A stretch of DNA of 11,026 nt from the IMG/VR virus record IMGVR_UViG_2690316285_000015. The stretch is one strand, 5' to 3'. Under the pieces are notes generated by a model. That model had not been told where the DNA came from. It saw only the letters and a list, made by a program, of their open reading frames with translations, and did no database searches. The DNA is from a virus. Taxonomy: Duplodnaviria; Heunggongvirae; Uroviricota; Caudoviricetes. A program made the translations under genes and the position numbers. Positions 4,307 to 10,998 of this stretch are shown here, piece after piece; position 1 is the first letter of the stretch, and every line of letters begins with the position of its first letter.

Positions 4307-5050
4307 ATGAACAGAAAACAATTCATCCAGTCGCATGGTGCTACTTGTAGTAACTGGACTTGGAGTTGGTCATTTGTGAACCACGACAAGAAAATGGTTA
4401 TCTTTGGTGCATGGGATGTACAAAAAGAGCAAGAAAGATCAGTCATTCTGAGGGAGCGGTGGAAAACCAAAGTTGTGGAGGGAAAGGAAAGAAAAAATCT
4501 TGGATATATTCAAGCTATTGAACACATTCAATTGATAGCTGAAGGTTATGAGCTTTACACGTTTGATATGGAGCAGGGACGAAACGATGAGAATAGAGAT
4601 GTAGCTGTTATCAAACGGTTCACTCCAAAACTTGAAAAACGTTACCTTCGGAAAGAAGGAACAGTTTGGTATGCAGACTTTTTACCTAATCCATTTCCAG
4701 ATGAAATTACCTCACCTGAAAACTACGCTGAGGGTGCAAAAAAGCAAGTTACAGTAAACTCCTACGAGCGTGATCCAAAAGCACGACAGGCTTGTATTGA
4801 CCATCATGGTACTTCCTGCGGGTGTTGTGAGTTTAACTTTGAGAAAGTCTATGGTGAACACGCCAAGGGCTTTATACACGTTCATCATATCAAACCGCTA
4901 CACACAGTAGGCGAGGATTACGAGGTAAATCCAATTACTGATATGGTTCCACTTTGTCCAAACTGTCACGCAATGGTACATCGCGGTAACGAAGTATTAA
5001 GTGTCGAAAGTTTAAAAGCACTGTTGTTTAAAGACAGCAATAAAATTTGA
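4307..5050 (+). CDS. HNH nuclease with McrA-like C-terminal HNH domain and an N-terminal domain of unknown type (possible modification-dependent restriction-like enzyme)
   Basis: C-terminus CGCCEFNFEKVYGEHAKGFIHVHHIKPLHTVGEDYEVNPITDMVPLCPNCHAMVHRG has the C-x2-C ... HH ... N ... C-P-N-C-H arrangement of McrA-type HNH domains; AGAGAGGGA SD-like element just upstream of ATG; ends at TGA. Confidence 0.7.
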   Translation: MNRKQFIQSHGATCSNWTWSWSFVNHDKKMVIFGAWDVQKEQERSVILRERWKTKVVEGKERKNLGYIQAIEHIQLIAEGYELYTFDMEQGRNDENRDVAVIKRFTPKLEKRYLRKEGTVWYADFLPNPFPDEITSPENYAEGAKKQVTVNSYERDPKARQACIDHHGTSCGCCEFNFEKVYGEHAKGFIHVHHIKPLHTVGEDYEVNPITDMVPLCPNCHAMVHRGNEVLSVESLKALLFKDSNKI

Positions 5051-6663: not shown

Positions 6664-6975
6664 TCAGAAGGGTAGTTCCCCCTGATCACAGAACCAATCA
6701 CCTTCTTCACTGCTTTGATTCATCCGGTACTCAGCAGATAGATATGCTAACCCATCAATAACACTTATTAGTGGTGTTTCACAGGTAAGTACAAAACAAT
6801 CTCTCTCTATAGTACCTAACCAGTATTCCCTGTACTGATTCTGGAAGAATACCCTATCCCCATAATGAAATTCTGTTAGTGCAGATCCCCAATAACACAC
6901 GGTTGCCCAGCGACCGTTATGTGAGAACTTCTGAACCCCTCGCGTAATGGATGGATCATAGCCGTCTTTGCTCAT
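6664..6975 (-). CDS. Hypothetical soluble protein (103 aa)
   Basis: Strong SD: reverse complement of 6976-6995 reads AGAGGAGGGTAACAA immediately before the ATG; ends at TGA; no recognisable domain. Confidence 0.5.
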   Translation of the reverse strand: MSKDGYDPSITRGVQKFSHNGRWATVCYWGSALTEFHYGDRVFFQNQYREYWLGTIERDCFVLTCETPLISVIDGLAYLSAEYRMNQSSEEGDWFCDQGELPF

Positions 6976-7082
6976 TTGTTACCCTCCTCTATGTATTACT
7001 GTATATATGTACAGTATTGCAGTCAGTTTCCCAAAAATCCAGCACCCCTTTGTTTACCACTTTGAATGATTAATTCTATTGT

Positions 7083-7135
7083 AATGATCAATAAAATTGA
7101 TCGATTTAATTGCCAATGTTTTAAAAATGATCAAT
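7083..7135. promoter_or_regulatory. Operator-like repeats AATGATCAAT with three GATC sites, in the divergent intergenic region
   Basis: AATGATCAAT at 7083-7092 and 7126-7135; palindrome GATCAAT-AAA-ATTGATC at 7086-7102; GATC at 7086, 7099 and 7129. Confidence 0.4.
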
Positions 7136-7167
7136 TATCAATAACTTAAAGCGTAACGAGCAAAGTT

Positions 7168-7719
7168 ATGAACATTGATAATTGGGCAATACCGATAACA
7201 AGTTTGGGTGGTCAGTTGCTGGGGGTTGAGTTGGTCAGCCATGTAGAACGCGAGGGAATCAGGCAGATCGGCCTATGGGAAGAAGAAGTACTTCATGGGC
7301 AACTAATGCTTATTGAAAGCAAGGCGGCATGGTTCAGGGATAACGGTTTGTATTGTGTGATTACTACTGGCCGTGGTGAACCATACGAGTACTTACCATT
7401 CCTTCGGCAGATGACAAGGGATATGAAAGTACATAACCAGCAGTGGCTTGATGATCTCGGTGTACATGGTGGTTCTGCTATTCCTCTGGTTACAGGTGAT
7501 TTCGAGGTTGCCCGATTAAATAGAAGGTACACAGAAGAGAACATTGACCGTCTGATCTTTCCAGTACTCATAAAAAGCATTCGCCAGTACTGCGAGAAGG
7601 TGATCGTACCCGTCAGAGATAAAACGTATTACCCAATTCTCAGAGAGGCCGGTGTATGGGCGGTACAGGGAGAGTTCAGGCCAATGCGTTTTGAGCAATG
7701 TGAAAAATTAATAGGATAA
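7168..7719 (+). CDS. Degenerate EAL-like domain protein (YdiV/RflP-like; catalytic motifs not conserved)
   Basis: AIPITSLGGQLLGVELVSHV parallels the start of EAL domains (QPIV...G.EAL.R) with ELV in place of EAL; WLDDLGVHGGSA parallels the DDFGTG(Y)S motif in degenerate form; C-terminal AVQGEF parallels the (V/L)QG(Y/F) motif. At 183 aa it is shorter than catalytic EAL domains. Confidence 0.55.
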   Translation: MNIDNWAIPITSLGGQLLGVELVSHVEREGIRQIGLWEEEVLHGQLMLIESKAAWFRDNGLYCVITTGRGEPYEYLPFLRQMTRDMKVHNQQWLDDLGVHGGSAIPLVTGDFEVARLNRRYTEENIDRLIFPVLIKSIRQYCEKVIVPVRDKTYYPILREAGVWAVQGEFRPMRFEQCEKLIG

Positions 7720-7724
7720 CAATA

Positions 7725-8087
7725 ATGAAAAAATTACTAATTGGGTTACTGATTGCCCTTAGTACTGGATGTACTACTACGCACAGCTTCATGGATAAAG
7801 CTTACGTTGGCTATGTAGATGACAAGGCCGTAGTACTGTTTGATGCAGGAACACGTAATGGGGTGAAGTACTACCGTCCTCAGTTCCAGAGTGATTGCGG
7901 TCGCATCTATAACAAGATCTATCATGATGACAATACAAGTACTGGATGCCTCATACGAGATTCCCGCATTGCTGAACTACATCCCTATAGAGAGCATGTA
8001 AGTAAGGTAGTACCACATCAGACCGATAGTGTTCACGATTGGTTAGAAGGGGTCAATTCACCATCCCATATCCTCGACAATCTATAG
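7725..8087 (+). CDS. Putative lipoprotein (120 aa)
   Basis: Signal peptide MKKLLIGLLIALSTGC with Cys16 followed by TTTHS (lipobox-like, not canonical); starts 5 nt after the EAL-like gene stop with AGGAT upstream; stop TAG. Confidence 0.6.
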   Translation: MKKLLIGLLIALSTGCTTTHSFMDKAYVGYVDDKAVVLFDAGTRNGVKYYRPQFQSDCGRIYNKIYHDDNTSTGCLIRDSRIAELHPYREHVSKVVPHQTDSVHDWLEGVNSPSHILDNL

Positions 8088-8094
8088 GGTACGT

Positions 8095-8364
8095 ATGGGA
8101 AAGGTAATGGTGATTTTGTTAGTACTGGCTGGGGTACTCTTCAACATTGCAGGTGAGGATGCACCCCAGCCACAGTACACGGACAATGAGAACCAGAACG
8201 CTATGGATTTCGCACAGTCACTAATCAAGGGTAAGTACCCATGCGATATGGTGACTATGGATAGTACTGAGAATGGTACAGGACGTATTGATGTACGGTG
8301 TGATGGTAAGTACCAGTATGAGATCATCCGGCATGATGGACAATGGCAGGTAGTATCGAAGTAA
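8095..8364 (+). CDS. Small secreted or periplasmic protein (89 aa) with N-terminal signal peptide
   Basis: MGKVMVILLVLAGVLFNIAG followed by a polar mature region with two Cys; starts 7 nt after the upstream stop. Confidence 0.55.
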   Translation: MGKVMVILLVLAGVLFNIAGEDAPQPQYTDNENQNAMDFAQSLIKGKYPCDMVTMDSTENGTGRIDVRCDGKYQYEIIRHDGQWQVVSK

Positions 8365-8469
8365 TCCGAAAAGTTTAGTGCTTAGGCTGTATGGTGAGAA
8401 TCTACAGGGCTTTTTCTTTATGCGGTGATAAGATCGGAGTGAACTTTTTATGAAGGAATAGTTAGTAGA

Positions 8470-8910
8470 ATGAAAATTACAGTCGATAATATCTCTGAAA
8501 TGTTTGCAGGAACTAAAGAACTACTAATCGGTGGCTTAATAACAGGTATCGTCGGAGTACTTATTTTAACTCGTGTTAGTGGTTATGAATACGTTAAAGT
8601 ACCTTTAATGTTAGTAATGATATTCTTACTAACTGTAGTTCCTGGTTTTATTGCTATGCTTTTTTCACCACTAACGAAAGTATTTGCAAAGATATTTGAT
8701 ATTAAAAGCAGTAATATACTTTGCCGCATTTTCTCATTTCTATATTTCATCTTGTATATGGCTATTACTTTCTTGGTGACTAATTTTATATTCACTACCG
8801 CAATGTCATTACACGGCGGGGATGGTGGGTTGAGAGCATGTTTTGCAATTGGCTGTTTTGTCGTTGCAGTTGAGCAGACAAGAAAATTCTATAGTTTGCT
8901 TATCAAGTAA
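8470..8910 (+). CDS. Integral membrane protein (146 aa, about 4 TM helices)
   Basis: Four hydrophobic segments (e.g. LLIGGLITGIVGVLILTRV, LMLVMIFLLTVVPGFIAMLF, IFSFLYFILYMAITFLVTNFIF, LRACFAIGCFVVAV); AAGGAA upstream. Confidence 0.55.
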   Translation: MKITVDNISEMFAGTKELLIGGLITGIVGVLILTRVSGYEYVKVPLMLVMIFLLTVVPGFIAMLFSPLTKVFAKIFDIKSSNILCRIFSFLYFILYMAITFLVTNFIFTTAMSLHGGDGGLRACFAIGCFVVAVEQTRKFYSLLIK

Positions 8911-8967: not shown

Positions 8968-9249
8968 GCAACAAATTACAAGGTGAGCATTTCATCACAA
9001 TTGTTTTAATTAACGATATTTTAAATTATTTTACGTAATTGAAACAAAATCAGCCATATCGCTTGTTAATTGGTATTGAGACTTTGTAGGTGTTATCATG
9101 CAATTAAATCATTTGCATTGGTATCTCTTATGGAAAAATTGATATTGCTATTATTATTACCTTTAACAACAAGTGCAGCTATTCCAGACTTTAAATGCTG
9201 GGATATTCATAACGATTCATTTAGTACTGACATGAGTTTCTACGTTACA

Positions 9250-9475
9250 AGATATCTCGAACCGTAATTATATCCATCATCAAATGCTTCATTGGTTATT
9301 ACCAGTTCCCTGTAAAATTTCTNNNNNNNNNNNNNNNNNNNAGATATCTCGGTAAAATGCCGCCGCCTTATGGTGCATTTCATTATGAAACAGCACCTGA
9401 TGAGAAATTTTACAGGGAACTGGTAATAACCAATGAAGCATTTGATGATGGATATAATTACGGTTCGAGATATCT
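9250..9475. repeat. 73-bp perfect inverted repeat flanking an assembly gap
   Basis: Left arm 9250-9322 is the exact reverse complement of right arm 9403-9475; between them lie the N run and 61 bp of unique sequence (9342-9402). The palindromic octamer AGATATCT occurs at 9250, 9342 and 9468. Confidence 0.7.
9323..9341. other. Assembly gap (19 N)
   Basis: Run of n characters; true length and content unknown. Confidence 0.95.
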
Positions 9476-9669
9476 AAACAAAGAAGGAACTTTGTACGAT
9501 GATATTAAATGTAAGCGGCTTTGATACTCATGATTCATTGTATATAGCTTACAAAGTATATTAACCATTGCATTCAATGGGTCCCTCCATACTGGCGGTA
9601 CTATCGAGGGTTTTCGGCAGCGGGTTTAATCAATTGTGTGTGAACAAAATGATCATACCCGCACCGCAT

Positions 9670-10998
<1,329 letters not shown>

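Follow-up and report, generated by a model that had tools for sequence, protein, structure and literature searches.

Can a temperate phage carry a protein that turns off the flagella of its host, and does such a protein act together with the envelope genes that lie beside it? The question is raised by four consecutive genes (positions 7168–8910) on an 11,026-nucleotide stretch of DNA, referred to here as the window, from a virus of the Caudoviricetes (IMG/VR record IMGVR_UViG_2690316285_000015). The four open reading frames (ORFs) lie in close order on the same strand: ORF 1 (7168–7719) encodes 183 amino acids (aa), ORF 2 (7725–8087; 120 aa) follows after 5 bp, ORF 3 (8095–8364; 89 aa) after a further 7 bp, and ORF 4 (8470–8910; 146 aa) after 105 bp. 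Three of them encode envelope proteins. A first-pass annotation made from the sequence alone had given these genes the coordinates and gaps that our ORF listing returns; it read ORF 1 as a degenerate EAL-like protein of the YdiV type and proposed that all four genes form one cassette for lysogenic conversion or superinfection exclusion. Here we find that the product of ORF 1 is a shortened, EAL-like homologue of Salmonella Typhimurium STM1697 and a putative antagonist of the flagellar master regulator FlhD4C2, that its gene travels with the lipoprotein gene (ORF 2) and with a divergent neighbor, and that the remaining two genes are accessory cargo and no part of this unit.

The first gene encodes a shortened STM1697-like protein

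The 183-aa protein (7168–7719, plus strand) carries both sequence motifs that had been quoted for it, namely ELV in place of EAL (within GVELVSH) and DDLGVHG in place of DDFGTG (within WLDDLGVHG). Single-sequence scans place it poorly. Pfam gave no family at E≤1, the EAL model (PF00563) included; NCBIfam returned a sub-threshold match to PdeH over residues 83–181 (E=2.7e-5; score 23.6 bits, cutoff 190); and the PHROG match is to phrog_32988, a family of unknown function. With a family profile built from an alignment of 14 homologues (50–89% identical, all from Enterobacteriaceae), 177,635 PDB sequences yielded one strong match, STM1697 (5hxg, E=1.4e-28), in two stretches, and this split implies internal deletions. 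Among 1.84 billion representative proteins, the same profile reached STM1697-like proteins of 219–235 aa (E ~1e-20 to 1e-24). YdiV chains were absent from the PDB matches even at E≤10, and identity is ~35% to STM1697 and ~20% to YdiV (E. coli RflP). The earlier assignment to the YdiV type thus holds for the kind of protein, a non-catalytic one of the anti-FlhD4C2 sort, but not for its closest relative, which is STM1697.

The predicted structure leads to the same relative. An AlphaFold2 model (mean predicted local distance difference test score, pLDDT, 69.6) is confident apart from residues 69–112, and Foldseek ranks the STM1697–FlhD complex 5hxg at the top of its PDB matches (E=2.6e-10, query TM-score, TMq, 0.64), followed by YdiV (E=2.5e-6) and catalytic EAL domains; all 50 of the PDB matches listed are EAL or EAL-like domains. 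Structure prediction, the check that had been suggested for the EAL assignment, therefore does return the TIM-barrel-like EAL fold, although in a trimmed form and with the 69–112 region poorly modeled. Compared with the 235-aa STM1697, the protein has 52 residues fewer, owing to deletions of ~10, 12 and 17 residues and to the loss of an 11-residue C-terminal tail, and the two larger deletions take away two barrel helices. It is accordingly shorter than the full-length architecture of STM1697-type proteins (~220–235 aa).

This trimmed gene is under purifying selection, with a ratio of nonsynonymous to synonymous substitution (dN/dS) of 0.11–0.23. When homologues of the first two genes from other genera are compared where dS is unsaturated, dN/dS lies at 0.11–0.27, which indicates that both are real genes rather than chance ORFs. 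A 100%-identical protein is recorded from Shigella sonnei. A tblastn search of sequenced phages gave a single match, with 31% identity, in an unannotated fragment of 2.2 kb recorded as 'Salmonella phage'.

Two relatives of unusual length deserve mention here. Locus L032 (7001–7582) encodes a 193-aa short-form protein, 43% identical; its gene is flanked by rimO and bssR on the chromosome of a 4.78-Mb genome and has no phage genes nearby. Short forms are thus not confined to phages, and the phage gene could have come from this chromosomal gene or given rise to it. In Pantoea agglomerans (L015, 5435–5989), a 184-aa EAL-like protein at the equivalent position retains the two helices lost from the window protein and is instead without part of the N-terminal region and without part of the C-terminal alpha/beta unit. 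Such differences in shortening suggest that the EAL-like scaffold has been trimmed repeatedly and independently.

The catalytic site is largely lost

We compared ten canonical catalytic positions by alignment with the active phosphodiesterase PdeH of E. coli MG1655. Four are kept: E21, the Glu of the EAL motif; D95 and D96, the DD pair; and Q167, the Gln of the QG motif. The other six are replaced, the metal-binding Asn by Thr, the two Glu residues of ExxE by Met and Asp, the catalytic Lys by Arg, and the two Glu residues of EGVE by Pro and Arg. The lost helices flank the strand that bears one of the replaced metal-binding positions. Because catalytic residues are replaced, helices are deleted, and STM1697 and YdiV neither bind nor hydrolyse cyclic di-GMP (c-di-GMP; PMC5622320), we consider enzymatic activity of the 183-aa protein very unlikely. 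Taken with the profile match and the fold, this alignment bears out the first-pass description of a shortened, catalytically degenerate EAL-like protein on a mobile element. Elsewhere in the clade, two full-length STM1697-like relatives from the representative library (P0024 and P0031, 225–234 aa) have all ten canonical positions, so the STM1697 clade may include active phosphodiesterases beside degenerate binders.

The putative FlhD-binding surface is largely conserved

In STM1697, 11 residues contact FlhD, and the mutants F160A/L173A and L172A/L173A/H176A lose both binding and function (PMC5622320). Nine of the 11 contacts can be aligned with the window protein: five are identical, three are conservatively replaced and one is changed, and the remaining two are deleted. 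The identical residues are L97, V108, L134, K136 and Y141, equivalent to STM1697 L136, V147, L173, K175 and Y180, respectively, with the equivalent of L173 invariant throughout the family; the conservative replacements are Y121 for F160, R128 for K167 and V133 for L172. Among 14 members of the phage family, these nine positions show little or no variation. Moreover, RLNRRYTEENIDRLIFPVLIKSIRQYC is the best-conserved segment of the whole 183-aa protein and is modeled at pLDDT 81–84, and the helix R128-L-I-F-P-V-L-I-K-S-I-R-Q-Y141 is equivalent to the FlhD-binding helix of STM1697. These observations are good circumstantial evidence that a protein–protein interface of the STM1697 type has been retained, from which we infer that the protein may bind FlhD itself.

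The EAL-like gene belongs to a conserved unit in a prophage lineage

About 20 related loci (given L numbers here) were compared, from Lelliottia, Enterobacter, E. coli, Klebsiella pneumoniae, Pantoea agglomerans, Citrobacter koseri, metagenomes and IMG/VR contigs. They share a gene order that runs from a serine recombinase through early genes, the module under study and a variable stretch to the terminase genes TerS and GpA-type TerL, a lambda-type portal and a protease–capsid fusion. The unit conserved within this order consists of a 103-aa gene on the minus strand (phrog_2100), the EAL-like gene and the lipoprotein gene. The EAL-like and lipoprotein genes are adjacent in prophages of Escherichia, Lelliottia, Klebsiella and Pantoea, and the EAL-like gene holds a fixed position by the 103-aa gene, which has a LexA box, in all related elements examined but one, Citrobacter L019, which is without it.

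The lineage has no cultured relative, its best TerL match among 50,697 phage records being 35% identical. Most loci with a host flank on record adjoin prkA/yeaG, and one Lelliottia copy adjoins msyB. In E. coli AREA_C483 (L035; NZ_CP123310.1, 2151860–2176662), the attachment site lies between yeaG (prkA) and mipA, and many IS3 and IS5 elements, together with a group II intron, are inserted in the prophage copy. The module was found in one of 5,426 complete E. coli genomes, where RefSeq names all three conserved genes 'hypothetical protein', and conserved peptide patterns matched two of ~185,000 species-representative genomes and six IMG/VR contigs. In full-text literature searches, we found no paper describing an EAL-like or anti-FlhDC protein encoded by a prophage. 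STM1697 'orthologs' have been mentioned in E. coli and Klebsiella (PMC5622320), and part of these may be the phage copies described here.

The partner gene encodes a lipoprotein

The second gene (7725–8087, plus strand) encodes a 120-aa lipoprotein, as had been called, with the lipobox LSTG|C16. The lipobox cysteine C16 is invariant in 23 homologues, as are C58, C75 and a YYRPQF motif, and we predict that the lipoprotein probably contains a disulfide. Thr at +2 suggests, by the standard +2 rule, sorting to the outer membrane. The model has a small beta-sheet core (residues 21–60, pLDDT ~80–88) and a disordered tail. Homologues fall into 62 clusters, all unannotated and all from Enterobacterales. 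There was no match in Pfam, PHROG, NCBIfam or PADLOC, and no significant sequence or structure match to any characterized protein, exclusion lipoproteins included. Small phage-encoded exclusion lipoproteins, probably located in the outer membrane, are known from T5 (Llp) and from phi80 and N15 (Cor); that the window lipoprotein likewise masks a receptor or excludes phages is a guess by analogy. We also considered that the module, which sits between early and terminase genes, might be a phage lysis cassette. This was rejected, as the first protein is EAL-like and the lipoprotein has neither a C-terminal transmembrane segment nor spanin-like features.

Promoter and divergent LexA-box gene

Upstream of the EAL-like gene, a promoter-like element (7083–7138, plus strand) contains TTGCCA, a 17-bp spacer and AATTAT at 7110–7138; this candidate promoter fits nine of the 12 consensus positions and lies ~30 bp upstream of the start codon. 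Within the element are GATC-centered repeats: AATGATCAATAA (7083–7094), AATTGATCGATT (7095–7106) and AATGATCAATTA (7126–7137). The block AAAAATGATCAATTATCAAT.A.TTA is nearly invariant in eight loci from five genera, and because of this conservation the EAL-like and lipoprotein genes appear to have their own sigma-70-like promoter. Clustering of GATC was rejected as a statistical signal, since 180 of 500 shuffles of the window reach the same level; the motif rests on its conservation between loci.

The divergent 103-aa gene (6664–6975, minus strand) has a strong Shine-Dalgarno sequence, GGAGG, and matches phrog_2100, a family of unknown function, with E=4.8e-9. Copies 52–91% identical occupy the same position in nearly every related locus, and dN/dS is 0.09–0.25. 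All homologues are annotated as 'hypothetical', and no PDB sequence scores better than E=0.36. A near-consensus LexA (SOS) box, TACTGTATATATGTACAGTA, lies at 6997–7016, ~20 bp upstream of the start codon. The pattern CTGT-N8-ACAG occurs only there in the window, against 0.15 occurrences expected by chance. At the same position, the strict pattern is found in seven of the first ten related loci; L006–L008 have a one-base variant (CTGG), and a relaxed pattern also finds the box in E. coli L012–14 and in the Klebsiella, Pantoea and Citrobacter loci. As the box overlaps the likely −10 region of the 103-aa gene, this gene is probably induced in the SOS response. SOS-induced antirepressors include Tum of phage 186 and the Gifsy Ant proteins, and by analogy the 103-aa protein could be such an antirepressor.

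The third and fourth genes are accessory cargo

The 89-aa protein (8095–8364, plus strand) has a single N-terminal hydrophobic signal or anchor segment at residues 1–19, in line with its earlier description as a signal-peptide protein. For the 146-aa multi-pass membrane protein (8470–8910, plus strand), four transmembrane segments had been claimed; three exceed the hydropathy threshold, and the fourth is plausible only. Neither protein matched Pfam, PHROG, NCBIfam or PADLOC, and the PADLOC scan returned no match at E≤1 for any of the four proteins. Both genes are sporadic. Outside the window, the 89-aa gene is found only in L001 (68% identical) and L019 (56%), and is thus missing from most loci; the 146-aa gene is found in L009/L010 (63%) and L019 (74%), with a distant version in L012–14 (27%), that is, in only about a third of the related loci. 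Elsewhere their positions are filled by DUF3800, by a trio of mSLOG/DUF4326, DUF488 and DuOB, or by a 238-aa minus-strand gene. The 146-aa gene also differs in G+C content (0.34) from the 103-aa, EAL-like, lipoprotein and 89-aa genes (0.43–0.46; window mean 0.37). Because of this sporadic occurrence, replacement and difference in composition, the four genes are not a unit: only the EAL-like gene and the lipoprotein gene, with the divergent LexA-box gene that had gone unremarked before, travel together, and the cassette proposed in the first-pass annotation does not hold.

A candidate terminator after the 89-aa gene was rejected, as the hairpin at 8386–8426 is no more stable than shuffled sequence (z=0.51) and was not called by the scanner. 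Across the lineage, variable hotspots flank the conserved trio (L006 10914–12068, L015 6373–8080, L017 2851–4873 and L009 7452–9363), and their cargo, comprising DUF3800, mSLOG/DUF4326 with DUF488 and DuOB, Hcp with DUF1493, 8xMP and a GTPase (MMR_HSR1/DUF697), looks like that of defense islands.

The window is a defective prophage

The window represents a temperate prophage in a degraded state; its lineage, uncultured and equipped with a serine recombinase, is found in Enterobacteriaceae. The mobile-element setting recognized from the first is evident from a C-terminal serine recombinase remnant (Zn_ribbon_recom), two HNH genes and TerS (10269–10814; phrog_57, E=1.3e-22), as well as from the beginning of a TerL of the GpA type. 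The first 50–65 bases (within 1–65) come from one end of an IS3-family element that occurs in thousands of E. coli and Shigella records. This element leaves only the C-terminal 276 aa of the recombinase (208–1038), which in L001 has 644 aa, and the window's copy of the prophage is probably unable to excise. When the window was compared as DNA with the phage, plasmid and E. coli collections, no near relative emerged, and the thousands of matches all came from the IS3-family end.

Several other features of the window were recorded. A 247-aa HNH protein (4307–5050, plus strand) resembles type IV methyl-directed restriction enzymes in the PADLOC scan (E=4.7e-7) and may be defense cargo of the prophage; the E. 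coli relatives L006/L007 have a counterpart that is 73% identical. An exact 79-bp inverted repeat (arms at 9244–9322 and 9403–9481) encloses 19 consecutive Ns (9323–9341); this arrangement, which looks like an assembly artifact, divides what is apparently a single gene for a small secreted protein (9130–9267 and 9357–9524). Divergent from TerS is a gene of 186–206 aa (9670–10290 in the window, minus strand) that is present in most loci of the lineage at 28–66% identity; it was not detected in L012–14 or L017–19, and it has no family or structure match.

Proposed role and alternative explanations

Based on these data, we propose that the EAL-like protein is a phage-borne anti-FlhD4C2 factor of the STM1697 type, an assignment that we judge to have about an even chance of being correct. 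According to this proposal, the genes at 7168–8087 would be expressed as a two-gene operon from the conserved sigma-70-like promoter. The EAL-like protein would bind the FlhD subunit of FlhD4C2 through the helix R128–Y141, and the phage lineage would thereby turn off the flagella of its host. From the second gene of the operon, a disulfide-containing lipoprotein, probably of the outer membrane, would be made. What the phage or lysogen might gain is speculative: protection from flagellum-dependent phages, less flagellin-triggered immunity, or a saving of resources. Paired with an envelope factor, the EAL-like protein could protect the cell from other phages or help it to escape detection by the host's immune system. 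The fuller version of this proposal, in which a near-universal module of the lineage combines a minimized anti-FlhD4C2 protein with a disulfide lipoprotein and switches off the host flagellar regulon at the level of its master regulator, we put forward tentatively, with somewhat less than even confidence.

Several observations weigh against an anti-FlhD4C2 role, and some of them also speak for a rival explanation, in which the EAL-like scaffold would bind a partner other than FlhD, either a host regulator or a phage factor tied to the SOS switch, and would serve a core phage function rather than that of a flagellar moron. Within the putative interface, STM1697 H176 is changed to S137, and V115 and L116 have no equivalent because their helix, one of the two that are lost, is deleted; residues 69–112 of the model have pLDDT below 50. 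The Klebsiella copy has R128S, K136Q and Y141C, and so loses three polar or aromatic contacts, a pattern that fits either relaxed constraint or another partner. The Pantoea copy at the same locus is not only shortened in a different way, it is also only 29% identical to the window protein over its C-terminal half. Prophages of Klebsiella pneumoniae and Shigella sonnei carry the gene intact, the former being a species without flagella and the latter non-motile. Nearly all members of the lineage that were found have the gene, at its fixed position beside the SOS-controlled gene, which fits a role in the phage life cycle too, and the apparent ubiquity of the module is itself biased because the loci were retrieved via the EAL-like gene or the lipoprotein. 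There is also precedent for an additional target, in that the EAL-like YdiV is reported to act on Fur via SlyD (PMC7515728). Against a retargeted scaffold, the best-conserved segment of the protein is exactly the FlhD-binding helix of STM1697, both mutationally critical positions are kept, and none of the data suggest an alternative partner. Most host genera of the gene are, moreover, flagellated, as Escherichia, Enterobacter, Lelliottia, Kosakonia and Pantoea are generally known to be. We regard a different partner as the main alternative, less likely than FlhD binding but far from negligible; were it true, a trimmed EAL scaffold retargeted in this way could be a still more novel variant.

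Two further explanations fare worse. That all four genes form a single envelope-remodeling or superinfection-exclusion cassette would agree with their common strand and the three envelope proteins among them, and in Citrobacter L019 the lipoprotein gene does occur together with 89-aa-like and 146-aa-like genes. Yet L019, the locus with all three envelope genes, is the one without the EAL-like gene, and in other loci the 89-aa gene is mostly missing, the 146-aa gene is found in about a third, and other cargo takes their place. With the 105-bp gap and deviating G+C content of the 146-aa gene, and with no exclusion or defense match in the PADLOC, Pfam and PHROG scans, we hold this explanation to be improbable. 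A working phosphodiesterase or receptor for c-di-GMP (or another cyclic nucleotide), which would alter host second messengers or degrade defense signals, could be argued from the weak NCBIfam match to PdeH, from the retention of E21, D95, D96 and Q167, and from the full set of canonical residues in the relatives P0024 and P0031. The protein has no Pfam EAL match, however; its metal-binding Asn and Glu and its catalytic Lys are replaced, the two helices bordering the strand with a replaced metal-binding position are deleted, and its nearest relatives are inactive on c-di-GMP and do not bind it (PMC5622320). Such an activity is highly improbable.

Significance and comparison with known systems

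In the known cases, YdiV and STM1697, EAL-like anti-FlhD4C2 proteins are encoded on the chromosome and regulate motility and virulence. If our proposal is correct, temperate phages can capture such a regulator and spread flagellar shut-off horizontally, which would bear on motility, on recognition through TLR5 and the inflammasome, and on susceptibility to flagellum-dependent phages. The 183-aa protein would then be the first phage-encoded protein antagonist of FlhD4C2, and, as a smaller EAL-like scaffold that still carries the FlhD-binding helix, it would be useful for dissection of the interface. Its lipoprotein partner and LexA-controlled neighbor represent uncharacterized families in clear contexts. 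The importance of the module is limited by its rarity, and we infer its function from homology alone.

Among known systems, the catalytic EAL phosphodiesterases (E. coli PdeH, PF00563) represent the ancestral fold, and the window protein keeps their EAL-motif Glu, DD pair and QG Gln; it differs from them in having no Pfam match, in the replacement of six of ten catalytic positions and in the deletion of two helices. The lipoprotein is like Llp and Cor in being small, phage-encoded and probably outer-membrane, with a lipobox signal peptide, but has no detectable similarity in sequence or fold to a characterized exclusion lipoprotein. Manipulation of host flagella by temperate phages of Enterobacteriaceae has a precedent in the TldR prophages of Enterobacter, which remodel the flagella of their host and affect motility, immune evasion and gut colonization (PMC13418256); for the window protein, such manipulation is what we propose. 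The mechanism would be unrelated, as TldR is an RNA-guided, TnpB-derived repressor of fliC that acts with a phage flagellin, so that the flagellin is exchanged instead of the regulon being shut down (PMC13418256).

YdiV/RflP (STM1344; 3tlq, 4es4) shares the EAL-like fold and the non-catalytic state and is the second-best structural match; FlhD binding is a property of YdiV, and for the window protein it is predicted. It differs in being beyond the reach of the profile and at the lower identity given above. YdiV also uses other interface residues than STM1697, its F155, F168, F181 and A184 being absent or substituted there, and, unlike STM1697, is able to remove FlhD4C2 from DNA (PMC5622320). 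STM1697 itself is closest by both sequence profile and predicted fold. It is a 235-aa chromosomal protein, encoded between steC and the sap operon with no lipoprotein partner; unlike it, the window protein has 183 aa, three internal deletions, no C-terminal tail and no V115/L116 helix, and is phage-borne with a lipoprotein partner. What the two have in common is a degenerate EAL site, the FlhD-binding helix and most of the contact residues, including the equivalents of F160 and L173.

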